A program made the position numbers and the translations under genes. 64,000 nucleotides of DNA from Candidatus Eiseniibacteriota bacterium (GTDB lineage Bacteria; Eisenbacteria; RBG-16-71-46; CAIMUX01; VGJL01). Position 1 is the stretch's first letter, and each line of letters opens with the position of its first letter. The notes beneath the pieces were generated by a model. It was not told the DNA's origin. It was given only the letters and a program-made list of their open reading frames with translations, and made no database searches. The stretch is from the NCBI GenBank assembly GCA_963792585.1, contig CAWBWI010000003.1:934299-998298 (forward strand), read 5' to 3'. Of the stretch, positions 17,273-48,153 are shown piece by piece.

Positions 17273-17344
17273 CCGGGTTCCCCCAGGTTGCGACCTTCCC
17301 GCCGGCCCGCTACAGTCAGTGCGGGTTCGGTAAAGGAGGTTGTG

Positions 17345-20453: not shown

Positions 20454-20839
20454 GGACCGCGTCCTCCCATGATCTTCACGAGCTCAAGGTCGACAGCTGG
20501 GGTGGCCGGATGTACCGAAACCAACGCACGGGCACCGCGGCCGGCGACCCCTCTGTCCCCGATCATCCATCGTCCATTCGGCGCCCGATCCAAAGGGGAA
20601 TGTTCCTCGCTGCCCGATGCTATTGGCCGCCCTTCCGCGGTGATGAACCCGGCGCCGTGAACCGAGACCGATGCGGATCGTGCGGCCGCCGCGACAGGCG
20701 CGACGATCCGGCGATGGCTCTCCCCCCGAATCTGCTATCATCCGTTGTTTCTTTAGAGAATGGCCGCCACAACCCGGCGCCCGATCTTGCGGCGCCGTGA
20801 CTGCAGCGATGAACTGCAGCAGGTACGGGAGGTGGGCCA

Positions 20840-28849: not shown

Positions 28850-31036
28850 TTATTGAATGCTGTATTTCTCGAGGCGGGAATAGAGCTGCGCGCGGCTCAG
28901 GCCGAGCAGCCGTGCGGCCCTCGACTTGTTTCCCTTGGCTTGCTGGAGAGCCTTCTCGACGAAACCCCGTTCGACGGCATCGAGATCGATGCCTCTTGCG
29001 GGTAACGGAGCCTGTGCGTCGATGAGACCACCCGCGCCGGCATCGGCGGATGCCACCACATCTCCCCGCACCACGGCCGCGGGAAGGTGCTCCCGCGTGA
29101 TCAGGCCGCCGTCGCATAGGAGGATGGCGCGCTCGATCGCGTTTCGCAGCTCACGGGCATTCCCCGGCCACGGGTGCGCCACGAGCCAGCCGCGCGCGTC
29201 CTTTGAGATGCCCGCGGCGGGGCGGCCCATCGTCCGCCCCAGATCTTCGAGGAACACCTCCGCCATGGGGAGGATGTCTTCCGGTCGCTCGCGAAGGGGC
29301 GGGATGCGGATCTGGAACACATTCAAGCGGTAGTAGAGGTCCTCGCGAAACGCCTGCATCGCAATTGCCGCGACGAGATCGCGATTCGTCGCCGCGATGA
29401 TCCGGACATCCGCCCGGAGCGTGCGCGTGCCGCCGAGTCGCTGGAACTCCCGCTCCTGCAGCACGCGGAGGATCTTCGCCTGAACGAACTGGCTCATCTC
29501 GCCGATTTCGTCCAGGAACAGCGTCCCTCCCGCGGCCTGCTCGAGCCGCCCGATCTTCGTGGTGATCGCGCCCGTGAAGGCGCCCTTCTCGTGGCCGAAG
29601 AGCTCCGACTCCAGGAGGTGCTCGGGAAGAGCCGCGCAGTTGATCGCGACGAACGGCTTCGCCGCCCGGGGCGAGCCCTGATGGATCAAGTGGGCAAGGA
29701 CCTCCTTGCCGGTGCCGGATTCCCCCACGATCAGCGCGGTCGTCTCGGACGGCGCCACGCGGCCGACCTGCAGGAGGGCTTCCTTCCAGGGACCGGACAC
29801 GCCGACGACACGGCCTCTCCCGCGCGTCTCCATTTCGCGCGTCAGCGTCTCGACGGTGGCGGCGAGCCTCTCCGCCCGCTCGCGGGCCTCCGTCGCGGTC
29901 CGGGCCTCTTCGGAGAGTCTGTGGTGGGAGAGCATCAGCGCGACGCGATCGGCGAGCCGGCTCGCCACCTCCACGTCATCGCGATCGTATCGGGAAGGCT
30001 CGCGGTGGAGGAACCCGAGGCCCCCGCTAACCTTGTCCGATAGGCGCACGGGGACGCGCAGCCATGATCGCATTCCCGACTCGGCGAGGAGGTGCTCCTT
30101 CTCCGTCTCGGGTGAGAGCTCGGCGGGGATGTCCCGCATGATCTCGAAGTCGCGGGCCCGATGCTCCGCCTCCTCTTCCGTGAGGGGGATCGGTTCGGTC
30201 GGGGGCGCGACATCGGCACGGCCGGCAACCGCGATCACACGAATCGATCGCGCGTGCAGTTCCAGCTCTGTCAGGACCATCACGTCATGATCCAGCACCG
30301 GCTGGATCCCCTCGGAAATCCGCTCGAACACCTCACGGACATCCAGCGACTCGGCCATCGTCCCGAACAGCGTCTCGATCCGATCGAGCCGCGCCTGCCG
30401 CCGCCTGTCGGCGTCCCAGATCCGCCAGTGCTCCACCGCAGAACCAAGAATGGCGGCGATCGGCCGCATCACCTGCTGGTGCTCGTCCGTGAAGGCGTGC
30501 CGCGCGTAGGCGCTGAGCCAGACTCCGCCGCTGAACGGCTCCGTCGCCCGAAACGGTTCCCAGAGCGCGGATCGGGCGCCCCCCTGAAGCATCTGCGCGT
30601 CCCCCGGGAACGTCGGATCCAGCTCGATCTCCGCATCGCCGACCCGCTGGATGGCTCCGGCACGCGGTCGCATGCGTGGCGACCAGATCGATAGCGGACA
30701 CGGACCCGAGCAACCGGTCGCCTTTTCCCCGGGGCATTCATCCAGCGTGGTCGCGTGCATGACCGTCCACTGGCCCTCCAGAATGCGGATCACCCCCATG
30801 TGATCGACCGGGATGAGTTCGCGGACGGACGTTGCGATGCGCTCGAAGACATCCTGTAGCTCGAGTGTCTCCGACGCGGTCGTCGCGATGTCCGCAAGCA
30901 CGCGGGCTACGGCCTCCGGATGGATGAACGGAGGCCGGAGCTGCGTGGCCGTGTCGACCGCCTCGGCGGTCTTTTGCGGGCTCGAAGGGGTCATGATATT
31001 CACGTTAACAGATGGCACCTTGATTGTCTGCGTCAC
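28850..31036 (-). CDS. sigma-54-dependent transcriptional activator with a long N-terminal sensory region (GAF-like, FhlA-type layout)
   Basis: GESGTGKEV Walker A, GAFTGA sigma-54 contact loop, C-terminal Fis-type [27 protein letters not shown] ~390-aa sensory N-terminus precedes the AAA+ module. Confidence 0.9.
31013..31027 (+). promoter_or_regulatory. sigma-54-like element TGGCAC-CTTGA-TTGT, candidate only
   Basis: Read directly. It lies inside the first codons of the activator gene, faces the hydrogenase operon, and sits ~460 nt from its ATG. It lacks the -12 GC. Confidence 0.2.
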
Positions 31037-31475: not shown

Positions 31476-32486
31476 ATGGCTGAAAAACCGAAGCTTGCGA
31501 TCTACTGGGCTTCCTCCTGCGGGGGGTGCGAGATCGCGGTGGCGAATCTCCACGAGAGGCTCCTCGACGTGGTGAGCTTCTTCGACTTCGTCTTCTGCCC
31601 CTGTCTCCTGGACACGAAGCGGCAGGACGTCGAAGCAATGCCGGACGGGAGTATCGCCGTCACGCTCTTCAATGGGGCCATCCGTACGGAAGACAACGCC
31701 GAGATGGCTCACCTGATGCGTCGCAAGTCGCAGCTCCTGATCGCGTATGGAGCCTGTGCCCATGGCGGCGGAATCCCCGCGCTGTCGAACCTGCACTCTC
31801 GTTCCGACCACATGGAAACGATCTATCTCAAAGGGCCCACGCTCGACAATCCGGATGGAGTTCTCCCGCGAGAGAGAGTCCAGGTGCCGGAAGGGGATCT
31901 CACCCTTCCCCGCTTCTTCGATGAGGTGATGTCCCTGTCCCAGGTCGTGCCGGTCGACTACTACATCCCGGGTTGCCCGCCCGCCACCGAGCAGGTCTGG
32001 AACGTCCTGCAAGTGGTGATGCAGGGCCAGGCGCTTCCGCCGGCGGGAGCGGCGCTGGGAGCGGGAACCTCGAGCGTGTGCGACGAATGCTCAAGGAAGC
32101 GCACCGAGAAAAAGGTGTCCCACTTCAATCGGATCTGGGAGATCGTCCCCGACGCGGATCAGTGCCTGCTCGAGCAGGGGATTGCATGCATGGGCGTGGC
32201 CACGCGCAGCGGGTGCGGCGGGCAGTGCCCGGAGGTCAACATGCCCTGCATCGGTTGTTACGGCGCCCCCGAGGGTGTCTACAGCCAGGCGGGGAAGATG
32301 ATCTCCACGCTGGGTTCGATCCTCGATATCGATCCGATTCGAGACCTGCGAGGTACCGAGGAGTTGAATGCGAGCGTGGACGAGGCCGAGAGAGGGATTC
32401 CGGATATTGCCGGCTTGACCGGCAAGTTCAACCTCGCGACCGCTGTCCGGCAACATTCCACGGATAGGAGAGCGGAGGAGAAATGA
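31476..32486 (+). CDS. mvhG: [NiFe]-hydrogenase small subunit (group 3, MvhG-like)
   Basis: MAEKPKLAIYWASSCGGCEIA.., YIPGCPP, and distal Cys clusters (CDEC.., CMGVATRSGCGGQCP, PCIGC). The first 62 codons of the track ORF are upstream read-through. Confidence 0.85.
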   Translation: MAEKPKLAIYWASSCGGCEIAVANLHERLLDVVSFFDFVFCPCLLDTKRQDVEAMPDGSIAVTLFNGAIRTEDNAEMAHLMRRKSQLLIAYGACAHGGGIPALSNLHSRSDHMETIYLKGPTLDNPDGVLPRERVQVPEGDLTLPRFFDEVMSLSQVVPVDYYIPGCPPATEQVWNVLQVVMQGQALPPAGAALGAGTSSVCDECSRKRTEKKVSHFNRIWEIVPDADQCLLEQGIACMGVATRSGCGGQCPEVNMPCIGCYGAPEGVYSQAGKMISTLGSILDIDPIRDLRGTEELNASVDEAERGIPDIAGLTGKFNLATAVRQHSTDRRAEEK

Positions 32487-34048
32487 GCATCGCGAAGGAC
32501 TTGAAAGAATCGGCGCCCCTGCCGCAGGTCCAGTCGGAGCCGGATCGGAAGACCGCCCGCAAGCGAGTGACGATCGACCCGATCACGCGTCTGGAAGGCC
32601 ATGGGCGCATCGAGATCTTCCTGAACGATGAAGGCAAGGTCGAGAACGTCTACTTCCAGGTGCCGGAGTTGCGCGGCTTCGAGCAGTTTCTCGTGGGACG
32701 GCCGGTGGAGGACATGCCCGTCATCACGAACCGCATCTGTGGCGTCTGTCCCGAGGCGCACCACCTGGCTGCCACGAAGGCACTGGACGACCTGTTCATG
32801 GTCGAGCCGCCTCCCGCCGCCCGGAAGATCCGGGAGCTGTTCTACAGCGCCTTCTATGTGACGGACCACACGACGCACTTCTACGTCCTTGGCGGCCCCG
32901 ACTTCATCGTGGGACCGGAAGCCCCTCCCTCCGAACGGAACATCGTGGGCGTCATCAACAAGGTGGGAATGGAGGCGGCGAAGCAGGTCATCGCATGCCG
33001 CTCGAGGAACCACGCGATCATCCGCAAACTTGGGGGCCGGGAGATCCACCCCACCGCCGGACTTCCCGGGGGGTGGAGCAAGCCGGTATCGGAGGAACTG
33101 CGTCGAGAGATCGAGGCGGCGGCGATCGAGAATCTGGACTTCGCGCAATTCACCCTGCAGGCCTTCGACGATCTCGTGCTGAAGAACTCCGCCTATCTGG
33201 AGATGATCTTATCCGACGTCTACCTGCACAGGACCTACTCCATGGGGACGGTGGATGCGGACAACAGGGCGAACTTCTACGACGGCCTCATTCGTGTCGT
33301 CGATCCGGACGGTCAGGAGATCCTCAAGTACCCGTGCCGCGAGTATCCTGATCACATCGCCGAGCGCGTGGAGCCTTGGACTTACCTCAAGTTCCCCTAC
33401 CTGAAGAAAGTGGGATGGCGGGGCTTCGTGGACGGCAAGGAGAGCGGGGTCTACTGCGCGACTCCGCTGTCGCGGCTCAATGTTTCCGATAGTCTCGCCA
33501 CCCCGAGAGCCAACGAGCACTTCGAGAAGTTCTACACGACCTTCGGCGCGAAGAGGGTCGACGGACGGTATCAGCCCGTTCACCATCGCCTGGCGACTCA
33601 CTGGGCGCGCCTCATCGAGCTGCTGTATGCCGCGGAGAGAATGGTGGAGTTGTCCCGCGACCCCGAGATCACTTCCCCGGATGTCCGGCGCATTCCGAGC
33701 GGGAAGATCAATCCTCTCGGAGGTATCGGATCCGTCGAGGCGCCGCGCGGAACCCTCACGCACCACTATGAAGCCGATGAACGGGGCCTCGTTACCCGGG
33801 CCAATCTCGTCGTCGGAACGACGAACAACTACGCCCCCATCACGATGTCGTTGAAGAAGGCGGCGGAGTCGCTCATCACCGGAAAAACGCCCATCGGAGA
33901 GGGCCTTCTCAACAAGATCGAGATGGCGTTCCGGCTCTACGATCCCTGCTTCTCATGCGCGACGCACTCCTTGCCCGGCGAGATGTCTCTGAAGGTCAAG
34001 ATCAGGGACGCGCGGGGCGCGATCGTACAGACTCTGCAGAGGGACTGA
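32483..34048 (+). CDS. mvhA: [NiFe]-hydrogenase large subunit (group 3, MvhA-like)
   Basis: ITRLEGHG, RICGVCPEAH (L1), DPCFSCATHS (L2) followed by a 26-residue tail. ATGA overlap with the small subunit. Confidence 0.9.
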   Translation: MSIAKDLKESAPLPQVQSEPDRKTARKRVTIDPITRLEGHGRIEIFLNDEGKVENVYFQVPELRGFEQFLVGRPVEDMPVITNRICGVCPEAHHLAATKALDDLFMVEPPPAARKIRELFYSAFYVTDHTTHFYVLGGPDFIVGPEAPPSERNIVGVINKVGMEAAKQVIACRSRNHAIIRKLGGREIHPTAGLPGGWSKPVSEELRREIEAAAIENLDFAQFTLQAFDDLVLKNSAYLEMILSDVYLHRTYSMGTVDADNRANFYDGLIRVVDPDGQEILKYPCREYPDHIAERVEPWTYLKFPYLKKVGWRGFVDGKESGVYCATPLSRLNVSDSLATPRANEHFEKFYTTFGAKRVDGRYQPVHHRLATHWARLIELLYAAERMVELSRDPEITSPDVRRIPSGKINPLGGIGSVEAPRGTLTHHYEADERGLVTRANLVVGTTNNYAPITMSLKKAAESLITGKTPIGEGLLNKIEMAFRLYDPCFSCATHSLPGEMSLKVKIRDARGAIVQTLQRD

Positions 34049-34052
34049 TCCG

Positions 34053-34529
34053 GTGCGCACGATCGTGATCGGGCTGGGGAATCCGGTGCGGGCCGACGAC
34101 GGCGTGGGACTCGCGGTGGCCCGGCTCCTCCGGGAGCGCCTGGAAGGTGTCGATGACATCGATGTGACGGAGCTCTGGGCCGGCGGACTGCGCCTGGCCG
34201 AGGCGATGTCCGGCTACGATCGGGCGATCGTGATCGACGCGCTCTGTACGGGAGACAAGAGGCCCGGTTCGGTCTGCCGGTTGGATCTCTCGGATCTGGG
34301 AAGCGCGCGCACGACGACATGCGTTCACGACACCTCCCTCCCCACGGCCATCGAGGTCTGGCGCCGGCTGGGTGCCCCCCTGCCGGAAGAGATCTCCGTC
34401 TGGGGAATCGAGGTCGAGAGCGTGGACGTGGTCAGCGAGCAGTTCACGGAACCCGTGGCCCAGGCGGTTCCACGGGCGGCCGAAGCCATTTTGGATCAAC
34501 TGAATCAGCACGGAGGGCGGGTCGCATGA
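34053..34529 (+). CDS. hydrogenase maturation endopeptidase
   Basis: MRTIVIGLGNPVRADDGVGLAV.. and ..AIVIDAL, 158 aa, placed directly after the large subunit. Confidence 0.85.
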   Translation: MRTIVIGLGNPVRADDGVGLAVARLLRERLEGVDDIDVTELWAGGLRLAEAMSGYDRAIVIDALCTGDKRPGSVCRLDLSDLGSARTTTCVHDTSLPTAIEVWRRLGAPLPEEISVWGIEVESVDVVSEQFTEPVAQAVPRAAEAILDQLNQHGGRVA

Positions 34530-36475
34530 AGGTCGGCGTCTACTTTTGCCGATGTGGCGGGATCGTCTCGGACAAGATCGACTTCGACGAGTTGGCGCGA
34601 CGGGTCCATGACAGCGATTGCGTCGCCTACGTGAAATCCGTGGATCTCGGATGCGACGAAAGCGGCAAGGCGTTCCTTGTCCAGGATCTTCGCGAAAACC
34701 AGCCGGATCGAGTCGTCATCGTCGCCTGCACCCCCAGGGAGCACGAAGGGACGTTCCGCGGCATTCTCGCCGAGGCGGGAATCAATCCATTCCTCATGCA
34801 GATGGTCAACGCCCGCGAGCAGGTCGCGTGGGTGACGGATGACGCTCACGAGGCGACCGAGAAGACGATTCGTTACGTGCGCGCCGCCGCGGCACGGGTC
34901 GTGCATCAGGAGCCCCTGGAGACTCCGGAGGTGGACGTCTGCACCGACACGCTCGTGATCGGGGGCGGGCCCGCCGGATTGAAGGCGGCGCTGACTCTGG
35001 CTGAGGCGGGCCGCCGGGTGATCCTCGTCGAGAAGGGTCCCATCCTGGGCGGGATGCCCGTCCGATACGATGAGATCTTTCCCCGGATGGAGTGCGGGCC
35101 CTGCGTCCTCGAGCCGTTCATGGCGGAGGTTCTGCATGGACCCCACGCGAGCAACATCGAGATCCTGCTTCAGTCCGAGGTCGTCGAGGCCGCCGGATCC
35201 TTCGGAGACTTTCGCGTGAAGATCCGCAAGAATCCGCGCTACGTGGATCTGCGAACCTGCATCGGTTGCGCCGAGTGCATCGGGGCCTGCCCCTCCTCGG
35301 CGAAGAATCCCGTCAACTGCGGAATGGACGAGCGCAAGGCGATCGACTTCGTCTTCTTCGGCGGCCTGCCGAACGCGCCCTATCTCGACCCTGTCGCCTG
35401 CCGGCGCTCGGGCGGGGAGGAGTGCACGAGTTGTCGGGAGGCGTGTCCGGTGGAGGGGGCGATTCGCTACGACGATCGCGAGGAGATCCTGGAAAGGCAA
35501 GTGGGAGCGGTCCTTCTTGCGACGGGAGGCGGTCTCTACGACACCGCGAACATGCCCGAGCTCGGGCACGGATCTCTTCCCTCCGTCGTGACGAGCCTGG
35601 AGTTCGAGAGAATCCTGGCGACCAACGGGCCGACCGGCGGCGCTATCCAGCGAGCGGACGGCGGCGCCCCCAGCCGGTTCGCGGTCGTGCACTGCGCGGG
35701 CAGCCTGGACGCGAGCCACCGGCAGTATTGCTCCGGGGTCTGCTGCCTCGACGCCTTCAAGTTCAATGTCCTCATCTCTCACAACCTGCCGGATGCTCGG
35801 GTCACGCACTACTACAAAACCTTCGCCGTCGCCGGCAAGGAGGAGTACGAGCTGTTCGGCAGAGTCAAGGCGGGCAAACAAACCGAGTTCGTTGCCTACC
35901 AGGATCTCCGCGATCTTTCCATCCAAGCGGGCAAGGACGGGTGCGCGACGATACAGACGGGAGGCGAGAGCAAGACCTTCGACCAGGTCATCCTGATGAC
36001 CGCGCTCGTGCCCGGTTCCGACACCAAACCCCTGGCGCGCGTGTTCGACGTCGGCCTGGATCGACAGGGCTACTTCGAGGAGTTGCACGGCCGGGTCGAT
36101 GCGACCAGAAGCAAAGTGCGGGGAATCTACCTGGCCGGCACCTGCCAAGGCCCGATGGATCTGGGAAGGGCCATGACGCAGGGGGCCTCCGCCGCCGGCG
36201 CGATCCTCGCCGCCCTCGTTCCAGGGAGGAAGCTCACCCTCGAGGCCATCCACGCCGAGGTGGACCAGGACCGCTGCTCCGCCTGCAAGTGCTGTCTGTC
36301 CATCTGTCCGTACAAGGCCATTTCGTTCGATGCCGAGAAGGACGCGACGGAGGTGGATCCGATCCTCTGCGTGGGATGCGGCACATGTGTGGCCGCGTGT
36401 CCTTCCGGGGCGATTCAGGGCAAGCATTTCACGAACGACCAGATCTTCGCCGAGATCGAGGGAGCACTCGCATGA
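34526..36475 (+). CDS. hdrA: HdrA-like FAD/Fe-S oxidoreductase
   Basis: DTLVIGGGPAGLKAALTLAEAG. Three CxxCxxCxxxCP motifs (CIGCAECIGACP, CSACKCCLSICP, CVGCGTCVAACP). Cys-rich N-terminal domain (YFCRCGG). ATGA overlaps at both ends. Confidence 0.8.
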   Translation: MKVGVYFCRCGGIVSDKIDFDELARRVHDSDCVAYVKSVDLGCDESGKAFLVQDLRENQPDRVVIVACTPREHEGTFRGILAEAGINPFLMQMVNAREQVAWVTDDAHEATEKTIRYVRAAAARVVHQEPLETPEVDVCTDTLVIGGGPAGLKAALTLAEAGRRVILVEKGPILGGMPVRYDEIFPRMECGPCVLEPFMAEVLHGPHASNIEILLQSEVVEAAGSFGDFRVKIRKNPRYVDLRTCIGCAECIGACPSSAKNPVNCGMDERKAIDFVFFGGLPNAPYLDPVACRRSGGEECTSCREACPVEGAIRYDDREEILERQVGAVLLATGGGLYDTANMPELGHGSLPSVVTSLEFERILATNGPTGGAIQRADGGAPSRFAVVHCAGSLDASHRQYCSGVCCLDAFKFNVLISHNLPDARVTHYYKTFAVAGKEEYELFGRVKAGKQTEFVAYQDLRDLSIQAGKDGCATIQTGGESKTFDQVILMTALVPGSDTKPLARVFDVGLDRQGYFEELHGRVDATRSKVRGIYLAGTCQGPMDLGRAMTQGASAAGAILAALVPGRKLTLEAIHAEVDQDRCSACKCCLSICPYKAISFDAEKDATEVDPILCVGCGTCVAACPSGAIQGKHFTNDQIFAEIEGALA

Positions 36476-36930
36476 ACCCGCAGGCCGGACGCATGGAACG
36501 GGAGGAGACTCCCTTCATCGGATTCGAACCGAGAATCGTGGGATTCCTCTGCAACTGGTGCTCCTACGCCGGAGCGGACAAGGCGGGGGCCGCGCAGACC
36601 CCGTATCCGCCGAACGTCCACGTCGTCCGGATGATGTGCACCGGCCGCATGGACCCGCAGTTCGTTCTGAAGGCATTCGATGAAGGCGCGGATGGCGTGC
36701 TGATCCTCGGGTGCCATCCGGGTGACTGTCACTACAAGGAACAGAACTTTCGAATGATCCAGCGTCACCGCTTGATCTTGTCGCTCCTGGGGCAGCTCGG
36801 GATCGAGGAAGAGCGGTGCCGGCTCGATTTCGTCTCCGCGGCGGAAGGGGAGAAGTTCGCCCAGGTCGTCACGGAGATGGTAGAGACCACGCGGAGGCTT
36901 GGTCCTCTGCGGGGTCGATTGGCCGCATAG
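36472..36930 (+). CDS. mvhD: MvhD-like hydrogenase iron-sulfur subunit
   Basis: IVGFLCNWCSYAGADKAG, MMCTGRMDP, ILGCHPGDCHY. Only the last 152 codons of track ORF 35092..36930 belong to it. Confidence 0.85.
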   Translation: MNPQAGRMEREETPFIGFEPRIVGFLCNWCSYAGADKAGAAQTPYPPNVHVVRMMCTGRMDPQFVLKAFDEGADGVLILGCHPGDCHYKEQNFRMIQRHRLILSLLGQLGIEEERCRLDFVSAAEGEKFAQVVTEMVETTRRLGPLRGRLAA

Positions 36931-36956
36931 CAATGGAAAGGCGGAGGTGAACTCAG

Positions 36957-37187
36957 ATGGCAACTGTCGAGATCGACGCCAGGGGCCTCAAGTGCCCGAT
37001 CCCCGTGCTCAAGATGACGAACCTGGTCATGGCGAAGAAGATCAACGCCGGTGACACCATGGTCGTGACAGCGGACTGCCCGACGTTCGAGAAGGATGTC
37101 CGGCAGTGGTGCCAGACCATGAAGAAGACTCTGATCGTCCTTCGCGACGAAGGAAACAACGTCAAGCACGCGGAGGTTCGGATCTGA
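36957..37187 (+). CDS. tusA: TusA/SirA family sulfur-carrier protein
   Basis: 76 aa, IDARGLKCPIPVLK (CPxP active-site Cys). GGAGG upstream. Confidence 0.8.
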   Translation: MATVEIDARGLKCPIPVLKMTNLVMAKKINAGDTMVVTADCPTFEKDVRQWCQTMKKTLIVLRDEGNNVKHAEVRI

Positions 37188-37399
37188 CGCAGTAATTCCG
37201 ATAATTGTACCGCACCGACCCAACCCCCATCGGGAAGCCTGCGGAACCCTGACTGGGCGGCAGTACATGAGCGTCCCGTAGTGCTCGATCGAAGCGCGAG
37301 GACCGCGGTTCTCGAGCCGCTCCTCACGGAAATACGCTGTTGCCGTTCAAGGTGATCATGAACAGACGCCGCCGGCGCGAATACGCAAGGAGATGGTCC

Positions 37400-39508
37400 A
37401 TGCGAGGTTTGAAGGATTTGGGGGTCCGTCAGAAGCTGATCCCGCTGATCGGGATCTTTTGCATCGGGTTCGTGTCGTATTCGATGTTCTCCTACCGGAC
37501 GCAAAACCTGGTCAAGGTCAATGGACCCACCTACGAGCGGATCGTCCAGGGCAAGGACTTGCTTGCGGACATCCTGCCTCCGCCAGGGTACCTGGTGGAG
37601 TCGTACATGGTTGTCCTGCAACTGACGCAGGAGACGGATGCGCGCGCCCGGGGAGAAATGGTCGACCATCTCACTCGACTCGAAGCAGAATACAACGCGC
37701 GACACGACTACTGGAACGGCGAGTTGGATCGGGGAACGCTGAAGGAGACGCTGACCTCCACCGCGCACGCCCCCGCGATGGCATTCTGGAGGACCGTGCA
37801 CTCCGACTTCCTCCCGGCGATCCTGAGAGGCGACCGGGCGAAGGCCGAGGAGGTGGTCCAGGGTCCTCTCAAGGCCCAGTACGAGGAGCACCGTCGCGCG
37901 GTCGACGAGGTGGTTCGCATGGCGGCCGCGCGCAATCTGGAAGACGAGAAGCGCGCCGCGATGACCATTCGGCAAGGTTCGATCACCTTGCTCCTGCTCG
38001 GGATCGTCTTCGTGGGGCTGATCCTCGGCATGAGCTGGGTGATCACGGAGGGGATCGCCAAACCGCTCCGGCAAGCGCGGGAAGTGCTGCGGGCCGTCGC
38101 GGTCGGCGATCTCGAGCAGAATCTGGCCTATGACGGTCGGGATGAGATCGGAGATCTGGCCCAGTCGATTCGCAGCCTCGGGACCAGTTCGCGGGAGCAG
38201 GCGGAGCTGGCTCGGAGGTTGGCGGAGGGCGACCTCTCGGTTCAGGTCTCGGCCCGCTCGGAGCGGGACATTCAGGTGCAGAGCTTCCAGCGAATGGTCG
38301 TGACCCTGAGAGAGTTGACTTCCGAGATTGGAACACTCAATCGGGCTGCCGTGGAAGGACGGCTCTCGGTGCGCGGAGATGCTGGCAAGTTCGATGGTGG
38401 GTATCGCGAAATCGTCCAGGGTATCAACGACACGCTCGACGCGACCGTACGACCAACGCAGGAGGCGGCGGGAGTCCTGTCCCAGCTGGCTGCACGAGAC
38501 CTTTCCGCGCGAATGCACGGCGACTATCAGGGCGAGCACGCCATGCTGAAGGAATCACTCAACCAGGCGGTGCAGAACCTGGACGACGCTTTCTACCAGG
38601 TCGCTGGGACCATCGACCAGGTGGCCGCGGCCGCGGCCGAGGTCGGATCCGGCAGCCACTCCGTGGCCGCAGGCGCGAGCGAGCAGGCCAGCACCCTGGA
38701 GGAGATCGCCAGCAGTCTTCAGATGATGTCCGCCATCACCCAGCAGGGCGGGGTCAACGCAAAGGAGGCGCATCAGCTAGCGGGGTGCACACAAGGGAGC
38801 GCCAAGGACGGATTGGAGACGATGCATCGGATGAGTGGAGCGATGGAGAAGATCAAGAACTCCTCCGATTCCACCGCGAAAATCATCCGAACCATTGATG
38901 AGATCGCCTTCCAGACCAATTTGCTTGCCCTGAACGCGGCGGTGGAGGCCGCTCGGGCTGGGGACGCCGGCAAGGGATTCGCGGTCGTTGCGGAGGAGGT
39001 TCGGAACCTGGCCATGCGAAGCGCTCGAGCGGCCAAGGACACGGCGGACTTGATCGAGGAGTCGGTAGGCAACACCGAGGGGGGCGTGAGCCTGAACAAG
39101 GAGGTGTTGTCGGGTTTGGAGGAAATCACCGGCCAAACGACACGCGTGGGCGAGGTCATGCAGGAAATGGTGGTCTCCTCGGAAGAGCAGCAGACCGCGA
39201 TCGAGCAGATCACTCAGGCGGTGGCCCAACTGAGTCAAGTGACCCAGCAGAACGCCGCGAGTTCGGAAGAGTCGGCCTCTGCCGCGCAAGAACTCTCGAG
39301 CCAGACTCAGGAGCTGCGCTCGGCCATCGGCCAGTTCTCCCTGACTTCCCATGCTCCCGGCCGATCGGGGACGACCCAGGCATCCTCGGGCTCGGCTCCG
39401 CGCCCTCAGAAGGCGCGGATCGTGCCCTTCAAGGGCCGGGAGCGCCAAGCCCCGGCGGCAGGGGACACCCTCGACGACGAAGACCGGAGGGCTCTGGGCA
39501 GCTTCTGA
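37400..39508 (+). CDS. methyl-accepting chemotaxis protein
   Basis: AAGGAG 7 nt before the ATG at 37400. N-terminal TM, HAMP-like repeats, and the signalling core [38 protein letters not shown]. Confidence 0.85.
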
Positions 39509-39693: not shown

Positions 39694-41925
39694 TCAATCG
39701 ATGCGCACGAGACGAACCGATTCCGCTTGGCCACCGCAGCGCAACCGCGCGAAGTAAATCCCACTGGGGACCCGGACGCCGCCCTCGTTGCGGCCGTCCC
39801 AGGAGAGGTCGGAAACGCCCGCCGGCATCGTCCCGTCGTGCAGCACCCGCGCTTCCCGGCCCTGGACATCATGGACCGAGAGGCGCACCGACATGGTCGT
39901 AGGCAGGTCGAGCCGCAGCACGGAGGGACCCGTCGACGGGTTGGTCATCGCGCTCAAGATCCTCGTCTCGGCCGCCACTCCGTCCTCCGCTCCGGCCGTG
40001 AACCTATGCCGGGGCATGAGGATCAGTCCCTGGGCGCGATCGCTCAGTACGATGCAGTTGGACGCCAGCGCCACGCGAGTCGCACCCGCTGCATGCTGAC
40101 CCTCGCGGAAGCCGATGTACGAGCCGCCGATCACATAAGGATGCGACGGGTCCGAGACATTGATGATGTAGATCCCTCCGCCGGCATCGCAACTGACATA
40201 GGCGATATCACCTTCGATCTGCACACCGCCCGCGCTGTTCGGTCTCTGTGCAAACGGCATCGTCTCCAAGGTTACCGGGTTCTCCGGGTTGGTGATGTCG
40301 ACGAACCACAGCTCCCCGCCCCACAAAGTCAGCAGCGCGAGGTTTCCGGACACCGCCATCGCCTCGGCGTACGGGACATCCTGGCCGTCCAAGGAAGCGA
40401 TCTGGATCGGGGAGCTGGGATCGCTCACGTCGGCAACCACGAAAGTGGCGTCCACGGCCACGTAGAGATAGGAACCCTGCGCGGCGATTTCGCGGACTTC
40501 CCCCGTGGTCGGCAGCATACCGAGCGTGGTCGGGCTGCACGGGTCGGTCACATCGACCAGGTAGACGTTTCCCGATCGTGGCGCGACAAAGAGAGTGTTC
40601 CCCTCCAGGGCGATGTGGTCGGTAACGGCGTACTGAGGATCTTGCGCGCACCAATGGACGAAGTTCGGATTGAGCAGCCGACCGTAGTGGAGTCGTTGAA
40701 AACCGCAAGCGAACATCGCGCTCGGTGTGACTTCGAGATCCGCGAATGCGTCCGCCAGGGGAATCCACCCGGTCGTGATCGGATTGCGCGGATCCGATGC
40801 GTCGACGACGCGAATCGAACCGCTCGGGTCGGTGAGGTAGATGCGGTTTCCGAGGACGTCCATGCCACTGAATCCGTCACCCTGGAGCAGGACCTCTCCG
40901 AGCGCATGGTCTTCGAGATTGACCCCACGATAGACCTCCAATAGCCCACCGCCCGAGTAGTAGGCGCGAATGAAGCACGCGCCGCCACCCTCGATCATGG
41001 CCAGATCCTCACCGCCGATGAGCTGCGTGCGCAGCACGGTCACGTCCCCAGGGTCCGAAACGTCGAGGATCGTCATCTGGCCATACTCGCCGACGGTGTA
41101 CGCCACGTTCCCCTGGAGGACGATCCGGACGGGAGAGTCGATTTCTGAGATCCCACCCGCCCGGACCGGATGGCTTGGGTCCGTTACGTCGAAGTTGAAC
41201 ATGCCCGACGTTGGCTCGGTGCTACAGGTGCGATAGCCGACATAGACCCGTCCGGCGGCCATCGCGACCCCGTGCACTTCACATTCGACATAGGTGCTCG
41301 AGAGTTGATGGGGAACGGAAGGATCCGCGAAGTCCACGAGGATCATGTCGCTGAACGAGGTGAGGCAGACGAGATCATCGTCGACCGCCATATTGTCAAT
41401 GGCATACGCCGGCGCGAACGTGGCGAGAAGGGCGGGAGCGGTCGGCACGGAGACGTCGACCACGCGCAGCCGATCCAACGACTCCCGGATGTATGCCCGA
41501 TTGCCACTGAGGGCGATCTGAACCGCCTCCGTTGGGTCCCCGAGTGTTCCTACAATTGCGGGGGAGCCCGGATCGCTCACATCGATGACGAGAAGGCCCG
41601 CGCCCCCGGACACGACATAGGCAAAGCCGTCTCGCACGACCAGGTCGGCGGGCGAGCCCGGCAGATTCAGCGTTCCGACGTGCGTTGGAGCGCCTGGGCC
41701 TGCAACATCCATTGCCTCGAGCCCCTGCGGAAGCAGAATGAAGGCGATTCCTCCGTCTTCATCTACGGCCCGGGGTACTTGATCGAACGACACGCTGCTC
41801 GACCAATGAAACAGGGTCGAGTAGTCGATGCTCTCCGCGCGTGGTGATTGTGTCAGCGCGCCTCCCGCCACGACGATCGCGGCAACGATGAGCGCGATGC
41901 GACACTTCTGAAACGGGGCATTCAT
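39694..41925 (-). CDS. LVIVD-repeat beta-propeller protein with FlgD-Ig/T9SS-type C-terminal domain
   Basis: Repeated ..AYVV..GAGLLVIDVSDPGSPAIVG.. units. Signal peptide (RIALIVAAIVVAGG), then RAESIDY. C-terminus VRLSVHDVQGREARVL..LSWDGRNEGGVRVPSGIYFARL. The start could be the GTG at 41934. Confidence 0.75.
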   Translation of the reverse strand: MNAPFQKCRIALIVAAIVVAGGALTQSPRAESIDYSTLFHWSSSVSFDQVPRAVDEDGGIAFILLPQGLEAMDVAGPGAPTHVGTLNLPGSPADLVVRDGFAYVVSGGAGLLVIDVSDPGSPAIVGTLGDPTEAVQIALSGNRAYIRESLDRLRVVDVSVPTAPALLATFAPAYAIDNMAVDDDLVCLTSFSDMILVDFADPSVPHQLSSTYVECEVHGVAMAAGRVYVGYRTCSTEPTSGMFNFDVTDPSHPVRAGGISEIDSPVRIVLQGNVAYTVGEYGQMTILDVSDPGDVTVLRTQLIGGEDLAMIEGGGACFIRAYYSGGGLLEVYRGVNLEDHALGEVLLQGDGFSGMDVLGNRIYLTDPSGSIRVVDASDPRNPITTGWIPLADAFADLEVTPSAMFACGFQRLHYGRLLNPNFVHWCAQDPQYAVTDHIALEGNTLFVAPRSGNVYLVDVTDPCSPTTLGMLPTTGEVREIAAQGSYLYVAVDATFVVADVSDPSSPIQIASLDGQDVPYAEAMAVSGNLALLTLWGGELWFVDITNPENPVTLETMPFAQRPNSAGGVQIEGDIAYVSCDAGGGIYIINVSDPSHPYVIGGSYIGFREGQHAAGATRVALASNCIVLSDRAQGLILMPRHRFTAGAEDGVAAETRILSAMTNPSTGPSVLRLDLPTTMSVRLSVHDVQGREARVLHDGTMPAGVSDLSWDGRNEGGVRVPSGIYFARLRCGGQAESVRLVRID

Positions 41926-41982
41926 TGCGGTCACGGCGTCCTCCTCTCCCGTCCGGGTGGACACGCATCTTAGTCCGAGGGA

Positions 41983-41988
41983 ATTATA
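41983..41988 (-). promoter_or_regulatory. perfect TATAAT -10 box on the minus strand upstream of the LVIVD gene
   Basis: The plus strand reads attata at 41983-41988. I found no good -35. It is preceded by the hairpin CTTGCCG-gcg-CGGCAAG (41991-42007). Confidence 0.3.
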
Positions 41989-42093
41989 GGCTTGCCGGCG
42001 CGGCAAGTACAGACAACGACGAAGCCGTCCGATGCCAGCCAGGATGGGGTTCTCGGTGATGAAGTTCTTGGGGCGACAGCCCCCAACCTCGGG

Positions 42094-42134: not shown

Positions 42135-43616
42135 CTATAGGAGGATCATTCTACGCGTCTGGCTCACCTCCGCGGCGCCCAGTCTATAGAAGTAGCACCC
42201 CGCCGGGACACGGCGGCCTCTCTCGTCGAGGCGATCCCACTGCGCATCGAAGAATCCGGGCGCGCGTTCCGCATCGACCACTGTCCGTAGCAAGCGTCCC
42301 TGCGCGTCGAAGATGCGCAGTTGGACCTGCGACGGCCGCCCAATCGAATAGACGATCCGGGTCGAGGAGATCACCGGATTCGGGTAGTTACCGTACAGGG
42401 CCGTAATCCGAGGGGAGGTCTCGCTCGCGACACCCGAAGGGCCAAGGATCTCGCGAAGCGCTGTGATGAACGCCTGCATGTCCTCCATGGTCCCCGTGGA
42501 GACGCGCAGGTGCTGCGACATTCCCCACCCGGTGCGCACATTGATGCCCCTGGCCGCCAGTTCCGCCGCCACTGGGCCTGCGCTTCTGCCGACGTTCACC
42601 ATGAAGAAGTTCGTCTCCGAAGGGATGTAGGTCAGACCCATGGAGCCGAACTCGGCGAAGCAGTAAGCCTTGGCCTGATCGTTGAGGGACACGGTGTCGC
42701 TGATGTGCAGGCTGTCGTTGAGGGCCGCCCTGGATGCGTCCAGCGCCGGCCGGGAAACGGTTCCCCAGGTCTGCCATGCGCCGGCGGCGGCCATCCGATT
42801 CGCGGGGCCGACGGCATATCCGACCCGCACCCCCGCCAGGCCGAAGATCTTGGAGAAGGTGCGGATGACGACGACGTCCTTCCCCTGGCGCACGAGTTCG
42901 ACGGCCGAGGTGTAATTGGGATCGTGCACGTACTCGTGATAGGCCTCGTCGATGACCGTCACGACCCCCGACGGGAGGGAGTTCACGAAGGAGGCGACAG
43001 CGGACGCGGACAGAGCGGTCGCGGTGGGATTGTTGGGGTTCGTGAGGCCCACCGCGAAGGTGCCGCCGTCGACCTGCGAGGCCATGGCGTTCAGGTTGAT
43101 GCGATGATTCGCGTCCAGCGGCACATAGCGGACGCTCGCGCCCATGAATGCGCAATCGGTGTCGAACTGCCCGTAGGAAGGGACCGGATAGATGACGTTT
43201 CCTCCCGGCTCGGCGAATCCCAGCGCGCAGAGGTGCAGCATCTCCGTGCCCCCGCAGCCGGCCAGTATTTGAGCGGTGCCCACCTGGTGAATGCCGGCCA
43301 GATCCTGACGGAGGGACTCGGCGTACCAGTCGGAATATCGGTGCCCGAGATCCAGGCCTTCGCTCATGGCCGCCCGGGCCAGAGGCGAAGGTCCTAGAGG
43401 GTTCTCGTTGTAGCAGAGGCGGCCGATGTAGTCGCGCCACAGATCGACTGCGGCGGGCCCTGCGGGCGACGTTTGGGTGAGGAGCTGCGTTGCCCCCGAC
43501 GCCGGTGCAAGGGGCAATTCGCTCAGTGCGAGGGCCGCGGTCCCCGCGGCCAGGCCGAAGAAGTTGCGGCGAGAGATACCGTGCGGTTCTCCAGAGGGGG
43601 GAGGGAACGCGTTCAT
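42135..43616 (-). CDS. class I/II PLP aminotransferase (HisC-like) with Tat signal and FlgD-Ig/T9SS-type C-terminal domain
   Basis: SRRNFFGLAAGTAALAL twin-arginine signal. NENPLGPSP, TNPNNPT, SKIFGLAGVRVGY (PLP Lys). C-terminal YPNPV..VQLRIFDAQGRLLRTVV..WDRLDERGRRVPAGCYFYRL. AAAGGAG before the ATG. Confidence 0.8.
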   Translation of the reverse strand: MNAFPPPSGEPHGISRRNFFGLAAGTAALALSELPLAPASGATQLLTQTSPAGPAAVDLWRDYIGRLCYNENPLGPSPLARAAMSEGLDLGHRYSDWYAESLRQDLAGIHQVGTAQILAGCGGTEMLHLCALGFAEPGGNVIYPVPSYGQFDTDCAFMGASVRYVPLDANHRINLNAMASQVDGGTFAVGLTNPNNPTATALSASAVASFVNSLPSGVVTVIDEAYHEYVHDPNYTSAVELVRQGKDVVVIRTFSKIFGLAGVRVGYAVGPANRMAAAGAWQTWGTVSRPALDASRAALNDSLHISDTVSLNDQAKAYCFAEFGSMGLTYIPSETNFFMVNVGRSAGPVAAELAARGINVRTGWGMSQHLRVSTGTMEDMQAFITALREILGPSGVASETSPRITALYGNYPNPVISSTRIVYSIGRPSQVQLRIFDAQGRLLRTVVDAERAPGFFDAQWDRLDERGRRVPAGCYFYRLGAAEVSQTRRMILL

Positions 43617-43776
43617 GGTGGCTCCTTTCGGCTATGAGCCCCTCGGCATCGTTTCAGCTCCGGCCCGTGCGCGGCTTCGCTCCGGCCGCATCCCAACCGG
43701 AGCGGACGCTGAACCATGATATACCTTGCCGCGGCGGTCGGAGAGCAGGGAGATCGGGAGTGTCATCCGGCCAAGG

Positions 43777-45945: not shown

Positions 45946-48153
45946 CTACCGAATGACGACGACCGAGCGGGTAGCGTCCATCCCCGGCCCGCGCAGCCGC
46001 ACAAAGTAGGTCCCCGCCGCCACGGGTCGGTTCATGCCGTCGCGCCCGTCCCAGGTAAGCGACCGCCGACCGCTTTCCGAGATCTCCCCGTCGCCGAGGG
46101 TGCGGATCCTGCGCCCGGCCACGTCGAGCACCTCGACCGACGATGAGCCTCGAGTCGACTGCTGGAACTCGAGCCGCACCGGGCACCGGGTCGGATTCGG
46201 TTCGATCGTGAACAAGCGGGACGCCGCTTCTTCTCCTGGGACCGAGGCCGTCAAGCGGTGCAGCGGCACGACCTGAATCCCTTCCCTCTCGTCCGCGATG
46301 AAGATGGACTCGGGACCGACATCCATTCCGTAGACCTGACCCGCAGTATCCACCTCGCCGATCAGCTGTGGGTTCGAGGGATCGGGTCCGAGGTCCCATA
46401 GCTGCATGCCGAGATCGAGCCGAGCCGTATAGAGGATCGACCCTATGACGGCGCAATCGAGGGTCACGAAATTCGGATGCACGCTCGCGACCACCGGATG
46501 GTCCGGGTCGGCGACATCCGCGACCCACATGCCGGAATACCCGTCCGCGATGTATGCATACTGCCCGCTGACCGCCACGCCGCCTGCATATCCCCAGGAT
46601 TGGAGGGGTGACGACAAGGTGCCCCGCCCCACGGGATGCGCCGGGTCGCTGACGTCCACGATGGCCAACTCGTGCCAGGAGCCTCCCAGGTAGACGAAGG
46701 GCCAGGCGACGTCCACCCCACGCGCCTCGCCGATCGAGCCCGGGTAGGTCGAGAGGACGACCGGATGGGCCGTGTCCGTCGCATCGACGACGACGAGATT
46801 CACGCTGCCGTTCGCGATGAAGACGTAGTTGCCGGAAACCGCGAGATCGTACTCGTACTCGCCCGGCATCGCCGTGTGTGACAGGTAGTGCGGCTGGTCG
46901 GGGAGCGTGACATCGACAAGGTGAAGCCCGGTGGTCCCGAGGACGTAGGCGAGATTCCCCACGAGCACCAGATCGTACGCGTCTCCGGCCTCCGGAACTT
47001 GCGCGACGATCCCGCCCCCGACCAGGTCGATCACCGAGAGGCCCTCGCCACGATCCGCCACGAGCGCATAGTGATCAACGAGCGCAACATCCTCCGCGAA
47101 GTCCCCGGTCGGGTACCGGTCCAGGATCGGGACCCCTCGCGGATGCGAGACGTCGACGATGTTGAGGCCCCAGATGTCGTCGGCCACATAGGCGATGCCG
47201 TCCTCCACCGCGACATCCGTGACGTCCCAGAAGCCTCCGGCCGTATGTCCGACCACCGTCGGGAGAGCGGGATCGCTCACGTCGATCGTCTCGAGGCTCA
47301 TGTTCGTCCAGAAGCCCGCGGTGCAGGCATACACATACGGATAGGCGGCGTCGATCGCGCGCGCGATCGGATACTGGAGGGAATGAGAGGAAACCTCCGT
47401 AGGGTTCGCGGGGTCGGAAACGTCGTAGATCGCAAGCTGGCTCAGGTTCTGGTTCGCCTGGCGGATCGCATAGAGCATGCCTCCCTCGAAAGTCAGGCCG
47501 CGAATCCCGGATCCGCCGATCCGGGAAATCTGGACGACATGCGTCGGATCGCTCGCATCAAGAATGTACAAGTATGGTGGAGCCGCCAGGAAGACGGTCG
47601 TGCCGGAGACCTCGACCGCAGTTCCGGCGCTCGCCCCGAAGGCGCCCACGGCGGTTCCTTGCCCGATGACGGAGCCGACGTCGATCACCCTCAGGCCACC
47701 GGCATCCGCGACGTAGGCGTACCCGCCCTCCACGGCGACATCATTGGCGTTGCCCGACACCGCCACGCGGTCCGTGATGGTAGGGCTGGCCGGAACGACA
47801 ATGCGGACGATATCGAGACCGCGGGATCCGACGGCGACGTAGGCATAGAAGCCCGAGACCGCGATGGCCGTCGCCTGTTCGGAGAGGGTGACATGTCCAA
47901 CCGTCCAGGGCGCCGTGGGGACGCCGGTGTTGATCACCCAAAACTGGTGGCCGGCCACGAACGCCCGGCCCCCGAGGGTGGCGACGGCAGTCGCTTCATC
48001 GCCTCCATCGTCCACGAAGTGGTTGGCGACGATTCCCTTCAGGAAGTCGCCGTAATCGATCGACTCCGCCCGCGCGATCGAGGGTGGGGTCGCGATCATC
48101 CAGAGCAGAGAGAGGGGGGCGAGGGCGCGCACGAAAGTGCTTCCAACACGCAT
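45946..48153 (-). CDS. LVIVD-repeat beta-propeller protein with FlgD-Ig/T9SS-type C-terminal domain (paralogue of 39694..41925)
   Basis: Signal peptide, then RAESIDY. Repeated ..AYVAD..GGLRVIDV.. and ..IVDVSDPAHPV.. units. C-terminus VEVLDVAGRRIRTL..LTWDGRDGMNRPVAAGTYFVRL. Confidence 0.75.
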   Translation of the reverse strand: MRVGSTFVRALAPLSLLWMIATPPSIARAESIDYGDFLKGIVANHFVDDGGDEATAVATLGGRAFVAGHQFWVINTGVPTAPWTVGHVTLSEQATAIAVSGFYAYVAVGSRGLDIVRIVVPASPTITDRVAVSGNANDVAVEGGYAYVADAGGLRVIDVGSVIGQGTAVGAFGASAGTAVEVSGTTVFLAAPPYLYILDASDPTHVVQISRIGGSGIRGLTFEGGMLYAIRQANQNLSQLAIYDVSDPANPTEVSSHSLQYPIARAIDAAYPYVYACTAGFWTNMSLETIDVSDPALPTVVGHTAGGFWDVTDVAVEDGIAYVADDIWGLNIVDVSHPRGVPILDRYPTGDFAEDVALVDHYALVADRGEGLSVIDLVGGGIVAQVPEAGDAYDLVLVGNLAYVLGTTGLHLVDVTLPDQPHYLSHTAMPGEYEYDLAVSGNYVFIANGSVNLVVVDATDTAHPVVLSTYPGSIGEARGVDVAWPFVYLGGSWHELAIVDVSDPAHPVGRGTLSSPLQSWGYAGGVAVSGQYAYIADGYSGMWVADVADPDHPVVASVHPNFVTLDCAVIGSILYTARLDLGMQLWDLGPDPSNPQLIGEVDTAGQVYGMDVGPESIFIADEREGIQVVPLHRLTASVPGEEAASRLFTIEPNPTRCPVRLEFQQSTRGSSSVEVLDVAGRRIRTLGDGEISESGRRSLTWDGRDGMNRPVAAGTYFVRLRGPGMDATRSVVVIR

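Follow-up and report, generated by a model that had tools for sequence, protein, structure and literature searches.

A TusA subfamily with a second cysteine linked to Mvh-type hydrogenase-HdrA cassettes in bacteria

Described systems and the operon

Among the closest described systems to the one considered here is the MvhAGD-HdrABC complex of methanogens (H2:CoB-CoM heterodisulfide, ferredoxin reductase; structures 5odc, 8rvv and 9sw2), in which a [NiFe]-hydrogenase is combined with heterodisulfide reductase (Hdr). Modules of Mvh and HdrA are also widespread outside methanogens, where the high-potential acceptor is an open question since the hosts lack the disulfide of coenzymes M and B (CoM-S-S-CoB). 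We analysed a stretch of 64,000 nucleotides (64 kb) from a Candidatus Eiseniibacteriota bacterium (contig CAWBWI010000003.1, positions 934,299 to 998,298), which we call the window, and in it an operon of six co-oriented genes on the + strand (31476-37187) that encodes such a module together with a small TusA-family protein. Many bacterial phyla share this arrangement of hydrogenase, HdrA and a two-cysteine TusA, which seems to be undescribed. An earlier note on this DNA, made from the letters alone, had stated that the wiring could not be mapped onto a described system, and we likewise found none in the searchable literature, although an earlier mention is possible.

The window shares with the methanogen complex homologues of MvhA, MvhG and MvhD and an HdrA that aligns from end to end. 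However, the methanogen complex has HdrB and HdrC, whereas the window has neither and carries a gene for TusA instead, so that the disulfide-reducing site and the relay leading to it are absent from the cassette. The hosts differ as well, being methanogens in one case and bacteria without coenzymes M and B in the other. As far as the flavin the system matches the Mvh-Hdr hydrogenase, from which it diverges beyond that point, and it is not an HdrABC in the strict sense because neither HdrB, with its two CCG domains, nor HdrC was found in the 64 kb. Bacterial clusters of the order hdrC-hdrB-hdrA-mvhD-mvhG-mvhA (loci L031-L083 of our survey) have the same families of hydrogenase, MvhD, HdrA and endopeptidase as the window but, unlike the window type, carry hdrCB directly upstream of hdrA, never tusA, and no nearby chemoreceptor genes.

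In the sulfur-oxidising Hdr-like (sHdr) systems of Hyphomicrobium, Aquifex and others (sHdrC1B1AHC2B2 with TusA, DsrE and LbpA), TusA is tied to an HdrA-family flavoprotein as in the window, and DsrE is also found in sister clusters of the window type. However, sHdrA is short and has a single cluster (the 349-residue 6tjr_A aligns only to residues 328-574 of the window HdrA), and sHdr always comes with HdrB/HdrC pairs and LbpA and without a hydrogenase, whereas the window has a hydrogenase and no HdrB, HdrC, LbpA or DsrE. The window operon, with an HdrA of the long methanogen type, is not an sHdr system. The TusA proteins of sHdr systems share the CPxP cysteine, and their second cysteine is described at the position of Escherichia coli Cys56, with none mentioned at that of Asp45. 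In DsrC, a small protein of dissimilatory sulfite reduction, sulfur or a trisulfide is carried by two cysteines, which an Hdr-related enzyme of the DsrK/HdrD type re-reduces. The likeness of DsrC to the window TusA is an analogy only; the folds are unrelated, and DsrC is reduced at a CCG-domain site whereas the window cassette has no such site. E. coli TusA (1dcj, 3lvj) has in common with the window TusA the fold, the CPxP cysteine and the equivalents of Asp51 and Cys56, but the two are 25% identical, the window protein scores 40 bits against a cut-off of 78 for the NCBIfam TusA equivalog, and the genomic partners of the window TusA are HdrA and MvhD, not the tRNA-thiolation genes.

Open reading frame (ORF) calls and translations give the following composition of the operon. 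The hydrogenase small subunit (31476-32486, 336 residues) is MvhG/VhuG-like (Pfam Oxidored_q6, 88.8 bits; NCBIfam VhuG, 211 bits) and is followed by a MvhA/VhuA-like, group 3c-like large subunit (32483-34048, 521 residues; Pfam NiFeSe_Hases; NCBIfam VhuA, 373 bits). A maturation endopeptidase of the HycI/HybD family with a GTG start (34053-34529, 158 residues; Pfam HycI and TIGR00072, 111 bits) holds GLGNPVRADDGVG. Then come a full-length HdrA (34526-36475, 649 residues), the [2Fe-2S] electron-transfer subunit MvhD (36472-36930, 152 residues; Pfam FlpD, 164 bits; NCBIfam VhuD, 123 bits) and the TusA-family protein (36957-37187, 76 residues; Pfam TusA, 54.1 bits against a gathering score of 28.6), which belongs to a subfamily that we call ADC after its motif. 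The genes are packed as the earlier note had described, with ATGA start/stop overlaps at 32483, 34526 and 36472 and remaining gaps of 4 and 26 nucleotides (nt), and every motif that it quoted for the proteins was located at its place in the translations. The gap of 26 nt lies between mvhD and tusA; tusA has its own strong ribosome-binding site, GGAGG, and no terminator was found between the two genes, so co-transcription fits.

The large subunit carries both NiFe-binding motifs, L1 (R-I/V-C-G-x-C-x3-H) as RICGVCPEAH at residue 84 and L2 (D-P-C-x2-C-x2-H) as DPCFSCATHS at residue 487, with a tail of 26 residues past CATH. Its best solved relatives are 7t2r_D (2e-106), MvhA 5odc_F (1e-103) and VhuA 9sw2_F, in a range from 1e-101 to 2e-106, and group 3d and group 1 enzymes rank behind these structures. 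An MvhD and a full-length HdrA share the operon with it, as is characteristic of group 3c. Judged by these matches the hydrogenase is Mvh-type and group 3c-like, and the initial identification of an Mvh-type hydrogenase with a complete HdrA and MvhD is supported by both nearest structures and family matches. The methanogen-specific NCBIfam equivalogs were all matched below their cut-offs (VhuA 373 of 800 bits, VhuG 211 of 450, VhuD 123 of 215, and HdrA below as well), which points to distant bacterial relatives rather than to the methanogen enzyme.

Residues 2-648 of HdrA align to the solved HdrA chains 8rvv_A and 5odc_A (about 1e-125). The protein contains IGGGPAGLKAAL and three CxxCxxCxxxCP motifs (at 245, 584 and 615), and it keeps all 26 conserved cysteine columns. 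The flavin adenine dinucleotide (FAD) motif and the cysteine ligands of the iron-sulfur (Fe-S) clusters are preserved in the TusA-linked and the HdrCB-linked HdrA clades described below, which makes a bifurcating core plausible. Signature differences between the two clades are modest and are seen around the CxxC at 190-193 and as GSLD versus GSRD. The C-x7-C spacing of the inserted ferredoxin domain was considered as a mark of the clade and rejected, as it is common to both bacterial clades. MvhD contains FLCNWCSYAGAD and MCTGR.

In order to search for HdrB and HdrC we built hidden Markov models (HMMs) from Pfam-verified homologues of the hdrC and hdrB products of locus L041 and applied them to six-frame ORFs at E<1e-3. 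Neither model matched in the 64-kb window, and a regular expression for the CCG signature had no match there in any frame. Pfam scans of about 40 ORFs of the window returned no CCG, HdrC-type, DsrE, LbpA or rhodanese domain and no hyp genes, and instead showed efflux, DNA repair, regulators, LVIVD-repeat proteins and similar. The absence of any CCG-domain or HdrC-like ORF from these 64 kb, which the earlier note had stated, is thus borne out by three kinds of search. Around about 60 related cassettes, too, no hdrB or hdrC gene lies within 8-10 kb.

Recurrence of the cassette and its TusA subfamily

Contigs with unrelated flanks carry the same set of six genes, with proteins 67-83% identical (67-75% for HdrA), which puts the cassette far beyond chance. 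The closest named relative of the window HdrA is from a metagenome-assembled genome of Polyangia (62%). Small-subunit identity across related loci ranges from 42 to 76%, and the endopeptidase gene holds the same position in the cassette loci.

A scan with HdrA over one genome per species gave 80 loci, which we probed by tblastn with the six proteins and with the HdrB and HdrC HMMs. About 60 tusA-linked loci come from Nitrospirota, Acidobacteriota, Geobacterales, Thermodesulfovibrionales, Omnitrophota, WOR-3 and the lineage of the window, and Polyangia-like and other lineages are also among the hosts of the TusA-linked HdrA clade. In GTDB genomes tusA adjoins the cluster at 19 of the 20 closest HdrA loci (L004-L023, the exception being L021), and it also stands beside the cluster at L025, L027, L029 and L030. 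Loci with an HdrA at least 43% identical to that of the window belong to Nitrospira and other Nitrospirota, Acidobacteriota, Geobacteraceae including Oryzomonas, other Desulfobacterota, Thermodesulfovibrionales and WOR-3. Those with tusA have no hdrB or hdrC within 10 kb on either side, except for L025 (WOR-3), where an HdrC-like ORF lies about 9.5 kb downstream.

The position of tusA varies. It may follow mvhD; in several Acidobacteriota it stands just before the small-subunit gene, on one strand or the other; and in Thermodesulfovibrionales it comes after the large-subunit gene in the order hdrA-mvhD-small-large. At two further loci HdrA is 38-40% identical and still falls in the TusA-linked clade, namely at L027 (Omnitrophota), where tusA precedes hdrA, and at L029 (Desulfocicer), where it follows the large-subunit gene. 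That the linkage outlasts gene rearrangement argues for function. The earlier note had named a lack of conserved adjacency in relatives, together with a co-regulated canonical hdrBC elsewhere, as grounds for giving up its proposal; the adjacency is upheld across phyla and rearrangements. In the 52 loci where HdrA is 36-41% identical, L027 and L029 set apart, on the other hand, hdrC-hdrB lies directly beside hdrA in 43 and tusA in 0, and six more have a larger HdrC-like ORF upstream. These HdrCB-type loci come mostly from Chloroflexota and Planctomycetota, with the usual order hdrC-hdrB-hdrA-mvhD-small-large-protease. When 113 HdrA sequences are placed in a neighbour-joining tree, a TusA-linked clade of 61 tips, which includes the window HdrA, stands apart from an HdrCB-linked clade of 52 tips; the exceptions to the match between tree and linkage are L021, two truncated or complex loci, and the second HdrA of L109 and L127. 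Cultured hosts of the cassette include Geobacter sp. DSM 9736 (LT896716.1, about 349.5-371.5 kb) and Desulfocicer vacuolatum DSM 3385, which makes direct biochemical work feasible. As a separate observation, L021 has about 4.7 kb inserted between its small- and large-subunit genes.

A second scan started from TusA in metagenomes, was seeded with the N-terminal CP motif only, and was limited to the best 80 loci. An ADC or ANC motif is present in 79 of these 80 matches. Where at least 1.5 kb is available on each side, mvhD, hdrA or hydrogenase genes lie beside tusA in 32 of 35 loci, usually 20-130 nt away. Of the 13 loci with at least 6 kb on each side, the complete cassette with hydrogenase is present in nine, hdrA (accompanied by mvhD or not) but no hydrogenase in three, and neither in one. 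Examples without hydrogenase are mvhD-hdrA-tusA at L141 and hdrA-tusA, with TusA of the ADC type, at L098 (6191-11680) and L148 (5913-11772). Such clusters show that the constant partner of TusA is the HdrA clade, the hydrogenase being one of several input modules. Past tusA, L098 and L148 continue with genes for a binding protein (Peripla_BP_6) and a histidine kinase (sCache/HAMP/PAS) and with a small ORF of about 125 residues, and the partial contigs L100 and L136, which are cut just upstream of tusA, likewise show these binding-protein and kinase genes downstream of it. The ORFs after tusA at L154, L151 and L138, known by size only, resemble those of L098 and L148.

Sister clusters of another kind combine the ADC-type tusA with further redox genes. 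At L124 (1023-11378), and also at L125, a pyridine-nucleotide-disulfide oxidoreductase, a DsrE-like protein, ADC-type TusA, MvhD, two HdrA-like proteins, two FrhB/FdhB-like Fe-S proteins, a further MvhD, HdrC and HdrB are encoded together. A DsrE-like ORF occurs in eight sister loci (L124, L125, L025, L122, L133, L135, L140 and L158), and its presence, with that of the oxidoreductase, beside ADC-type TusA points to sulfur or disulfide chemistry. At L109 (1-6843) and L127 (484-9062) the mvhD-tusA end of a cassette is followed about 2 kb downstream by hdrC-hdrB-hdrA-mvhD, and this canonical cluster has its own HdrA, of the other clade, and its own MvhD. Since a canonical hdrCBA-mvhD can adjoin a TusA-type cassette, the lack of HdrB and HdrC is a trait of the module and not necessarily of the genome.

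A query of concatenated MvhD and TusA retrieved a natural fusion of the two (P0182, 227 residues; L165, 10001-10684) in a locus of the order small-large-protease-HdrA-[MvhD-TusA], as in the window cassette. This fusion, a single metagenomic sequence, supports a physical association of MvhD with TusA. Two variants of the single genes were also seen, namely a protein of 281 residues with two tandem MvhD domains (P0167) and tandem tusA pairs at L085 (6591-7058) and L091 (300-823).

The window TusA has three cysteines, Cys13 in the CPxP motif (GLKCPIP), Cys41 and Cys52. Cys13, in KCPIP, aligns to Cys19 of E. coli TusA and is invariant in the linked homologues. In the alignment with 1dcj and 3lvj, Cys41 takes the place of E. 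coli Asp45, which is described with the IscS-TusA structure as absolutely conserved, buried, and hydrogen-bonded to the main-chain NH of Cys19 in the active site (PMC2854127). E. coli Asp51, at 4.2 A from the sulfur of Cys19 (PMC2854127), is kept in the window TusA as Asp47. Among the linked TusA proteins Cys13 and Cys41 are invariant (motif A-D-C-[PSAG]-[TS]-F), as are Asp40 and Asp47, and Cys52 is near-invariant, being lost in several. Asp45, which marks a canonical TusA, is thus replaced by cysteine across the subfamily. An AlphaFold2 (AF2) model of the window protein (mean predicted local distance difference test, pLDDT, 86) has the TusA fold, with a TM-score of 0.81 to 3lvj_C, and places Cys13 directly N-terminal of helix 1 and Cys41 directly past strand 2. 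By analogy with the E. coli structure, we infer that the two thiols lie side by side and within bonding distance.

Searching 1.84 billion representative sequences with a TusA profile returned 210 proteins at E<=1e-10. Among the top 150, cysteine occupies the Asp45 position in 63 of the 70 single-domain matches, and the multi-domain top matches are ordinary TusA repeats of the ADD type. Covariation of Cys13 and Cys41 is weak, with three suggestive double losses (SP...DSP) and counts of 56/4/7/3 in the 2x2 table, some rows of which are fragments. From their sequences, the linked TusA proteins are a subfamily separate from the ordinary TusA of sulfur oxidisers, and the current database label 'tRNA 2-thiouridine synthesizing protein A' almost certainly misnames its members. 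The searchable full-text literature yielded no description of a subfamily with cysteine for Asp45, although an earlier mention is possible.

Possible roles of the TusA-linked module

We propose that hydrogen reduces the flavin of HdrA via MvhD and that a disulfide or persulfide at Cys13/Cys41 of TusA is the high-potential acceptor, replacing CoM-S-S-CoB and HdrBC; we put the probability of this reading at roughly 0.45. The six gene products would form one soluble complex in which MvhA and MvhG oxidise hydrogen and HdrA, as a dimer, receives the electrons at its FAD from the [2Fe-2S] cluster of MvhD. The low-potential electron could leave through the ferredoxin domain of HdrA to ferredoxin, and the high-potential pair would pass to the dedicated TusA and not to HdrC, HdrB and CoM-S-S-CoB, both the route and its direction being conjectural. 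Cys13 and Cys41 may form an intramolecular disulfide or may carry sulfane sulfur. In the latter case Cys41 could resolve a persulfide on Cys13 to give H2S and a disulfide, which the complex would then re-reduce, and TusA would serve as a protein-borne 'heterodisulfide'. The net reaction would be a hydrogen-driven reduction of a protein disulfide or of sulfane sulfur, possibly coupled to ferredoxin reduction, and it might also run in reverse as confurcating hydrogen production. The cysteine pair of TusA is suggested as the oxidant carrier by the linkage to one HdrA clade that withstands rearrangement, by the absence of HdrCB, by the MvhD fusion and by DsrE in the sister clusters. A narrower form of the proposal, in which the module is a self-contained, HdrB-independent bifurcating hydrogenase whose two-cysteine TusA is reduced directly by the HdrA module, its state perhaps being read by a chemoreceptor, seems to us rather doubtful.

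If TusA is the acceptor, bacteria would possess a hydrogen-driven reductase for protein disulfides or sulfane sulfur that also yields reduced ferredoxin. It would name the long-sought acceptor of bacterial Mvh/HdrA modules and a new mode of disulfide reduction in the Hdr family. A coherent HdrA clade without HdrB and HdrC but with a dedicated two-cysteine TusA in any case offers a testable acceptor candidate, and it poses the puzzle of how an Hdr flavoprotein might reduce a disulfide or persulfide without HdrB.

Several points weigh against this proposal. To our knowledge all characterised Hdr enzymes reduce the disulfide at the non-cubane clusters of HdrB, which the cassette lacks; it has no evident site where the reduction of a disulfide could be catalysed, and in the TusA-linked HdrA clade we found no clade-specific cysteines or insertions able to stand in for HdrB. 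The Pfam scans of about 40 ORFs showed nothing sulfur-related in the 64 kb besides tusA, and many of the hosts, such as Nitrospira and Terriglobia, are not known to reduce sulfur. The proximity of Cys13 and Cys41 is read from the E. coli structure, and the sole fusion protein could be an artefact of assembly or a frameshift. The HdrA of L021 (Geobacter sp. H7geo, 2317-12309) belongs to the TusA-linked clade, yet no tusA lies within 10 kb of it, which makes this locus the clearest exception to the linkage. The coexistence of ADC-type tusA with hdrC-hdrB at L124/L125 and L109/L127 suggests that TusA may be a substrate of the HdrB site rather than a replacement for HdrB. Finally, an enrichment of chemosensory genes hints at a possible role in signalling.

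This last point concerns the gene that follows the operon. A methyl-accepting chemotaxis protein (MCP; two transmembrane segments, with HAMP, HAMP_2 and MCPsignal in Pfam) is encoded on the + strand at 37340-39508, 152 nt downstream of tusA, and no terminator-like site was found between the two genes. The earlier note had the operon end in TusA, but the unit may extend into this recurrent neighbour. We compared neighbouring genes at loci of at least 12 kb, which left 38 TusA-type and 34 HdrCB-type loci. An MCP gene is found at 17 of the 38 versus 0 of the 34 (p=2e-6) and CheA at 10 versus 0 (p=0.001), whereas generic histidine kinases are not enriched (9/38 versus 9/34, p=0.79); the MCP enrichment is confounded by phylum, the HdrCB-type loci being mostly from Chloroflexota and Planctomycetota. 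In several phyla tusA or the small-subunit gene often has the MCP gene right beside it (besides the window, at L015, L017, L018, L020, L022, L023, L027, L030, L087, L090, L129, L159 and L164), and the Mvh cluster of Geobacter sulfurreducens includes an MCP annotated as MvhV (PMC7894505). The association of MCP genes with the cassette is real; co-regulation, taxis and signalling through TusA are candidates for its meaning, and it suggests a tie between cytoplasmic hydrogen metabolism and taxis or regulation. One could suppose that the module senses redox state or hydrogen and is no bulk catabolic enzyme: hydrogen, via Mvh, MvhD and HdrA, would set the dithiol/disulfide state of TusA, and TusA or the whole complex would signal to the adjacent chemoreceptor or Che proteins for hydrogen or energy taxis, or for control of expression with partner-switching outputs. 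Such outputs have counterparts at L002, where a full Che cluster with response regulator-SpoIIE, anti-sigma and STAS genes lies downstream, and at L141, where STAS and anti-sigma-kinase genes directly follow tusA; the binding protein, sensor kinase and regulator after hdrA-tusA at L098 and L148 (in part at L100 and L136) would also fit, and hydrogenase-based sensors have precedent. However, the MCP sensor domains differ between loci, similarity being confined to the HAMP and signalling regions, and the window MCP resembles a usual membrane-spanning receptor that has a periplasmic domain. Like catalytic enzymes, the hydrogenase comes with a C-terminal extension and a dedicated endopeptidase, six clusters and a ferredoxin domain in HdrA are elaborate for a sensor, and the neighbouring regulators may just control expression of the operon. 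We consider a sensing device unlikely on balance.

The two invariant cysteines, brought together where a structural Asp is replaced, could also be ligands. TusA would then be a small electron-transfer or cofactor subunit and not a sulfur carrier, with Cys13 and Cys41, with or without Cys52, binding an Fe-S cluster or a metal (by itself, in a dimer, or jointly with MvhD or HdrA) and acting as an exit port from the high-potential branch of HdrA to a diffusible acceptor. The near-invariance of the third cysteine, the invariant Asp40 and Asp47 and the fusion with the [2Fe-2S] protein MvhD agree with this, and Hdr-type flavins release electrons singly via clusters, so that a cluster would suit them better as acceptor than a bare disulfide. 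But a cluster-binding member of the TusA family is not known, only two cysteines are strictly invariant while Cys52 is lost in several members, and DsrE, a sulfur-transfer partner of TusA, occurs with the same TusA type in the sister clusters and favours sulfur chemistry; a ligand role accordingly seems improbable to us. About equally hard to favour, and to our mind a little less credible, is a conventional Mvh-HdrABC whose HdrB and HdrC are encoded elsewhere, TusA delivering a sulfur substrate to HdrB. The inspected sequence of the source genome amounts to 64 kb, hdrC-hdrB lies near or together with ADC-type tusA at L109/L127 and L124/L125, and the Hdr cluster of G. sulfurreducens is a separate one (PMC7894505). 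However, the hdrCB of L109/L127 is paired with an HdrA of the other clade and its own MvhD, HdrCB-type loci keep these genes adjacent whereas the TusA-type loci lack them nearby, and the two HdrA clades separate cleanly. A role of TusA outside the working enzyme, as a maturation factor that supplies sulfur for a cofactor of this HdrA/MvhD/hydrogenase lineage, would accord with the mobilisation of sulfur for cofactor synthesis by E. coli TusA proteins (PMC2854127) and with the maturation protease in the operon, and yet we regard it as very improbable: HdrCB-type clusters have the same cofactor ligands and no tusA, the change of Asp45 to cysteine argues for new chemistry over an ordinary relay, and the MvhD fusion suggests a stoichiometric partner.

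Other genes of the window

A sigma-54-dependent activator (GAF, AAA+ and HTH_8 in Pfam) is encoded divergently on the - strand at 28850-31036, 440 nt upstream of the operon, and is a possible regulator of it. We found no convincing match to a -24/-12 sigma-54 promoter upstream of 31476, and similar activators occur near the TusA-type loci L006, L022 and L104 and near HdrCB-type loci too. Recurrent clusters of flanking ORFs without a Pfam family were set aside; they are probably antisense shadows of Che genes in loci of high G+C content.

Downstream of the MCP gene, two large LVIVD-repeat proteins with FlgD Ig-like C-terminal domains are encoded on the - strand (39694-42006 and 45946-48156). 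Between them lies an aminotransferase of class I/II (42135-43631, - strand) that ends in a weak match to the same FlgD Ig-like domain (26.5 bits, just below the cut-off). This tail is otherwise found in the window on the LVIVD-repeat proteins, and it is odd for a cytoplasmic aminotransferase family. Proteins with such a tail (FlgD_ig, with Peptidase_C25) also flank the cassette in the P0003 contig, which is a hint at the phylogenetic neighbourhood of the window.

Four long ORFs of the + strand (1852-5184, 15387-16484, 17273-18001 and 20813-21562) have a coding-like G+C content at third codon positions (GC3) and no Pfam family, and one of them is 1110 residues long. An HDOD-domain protein is encoded at 19599-20483 (- strand) and another near hdrA-tusA in L098 (2870-3706, - strand), which may be a coincidence.

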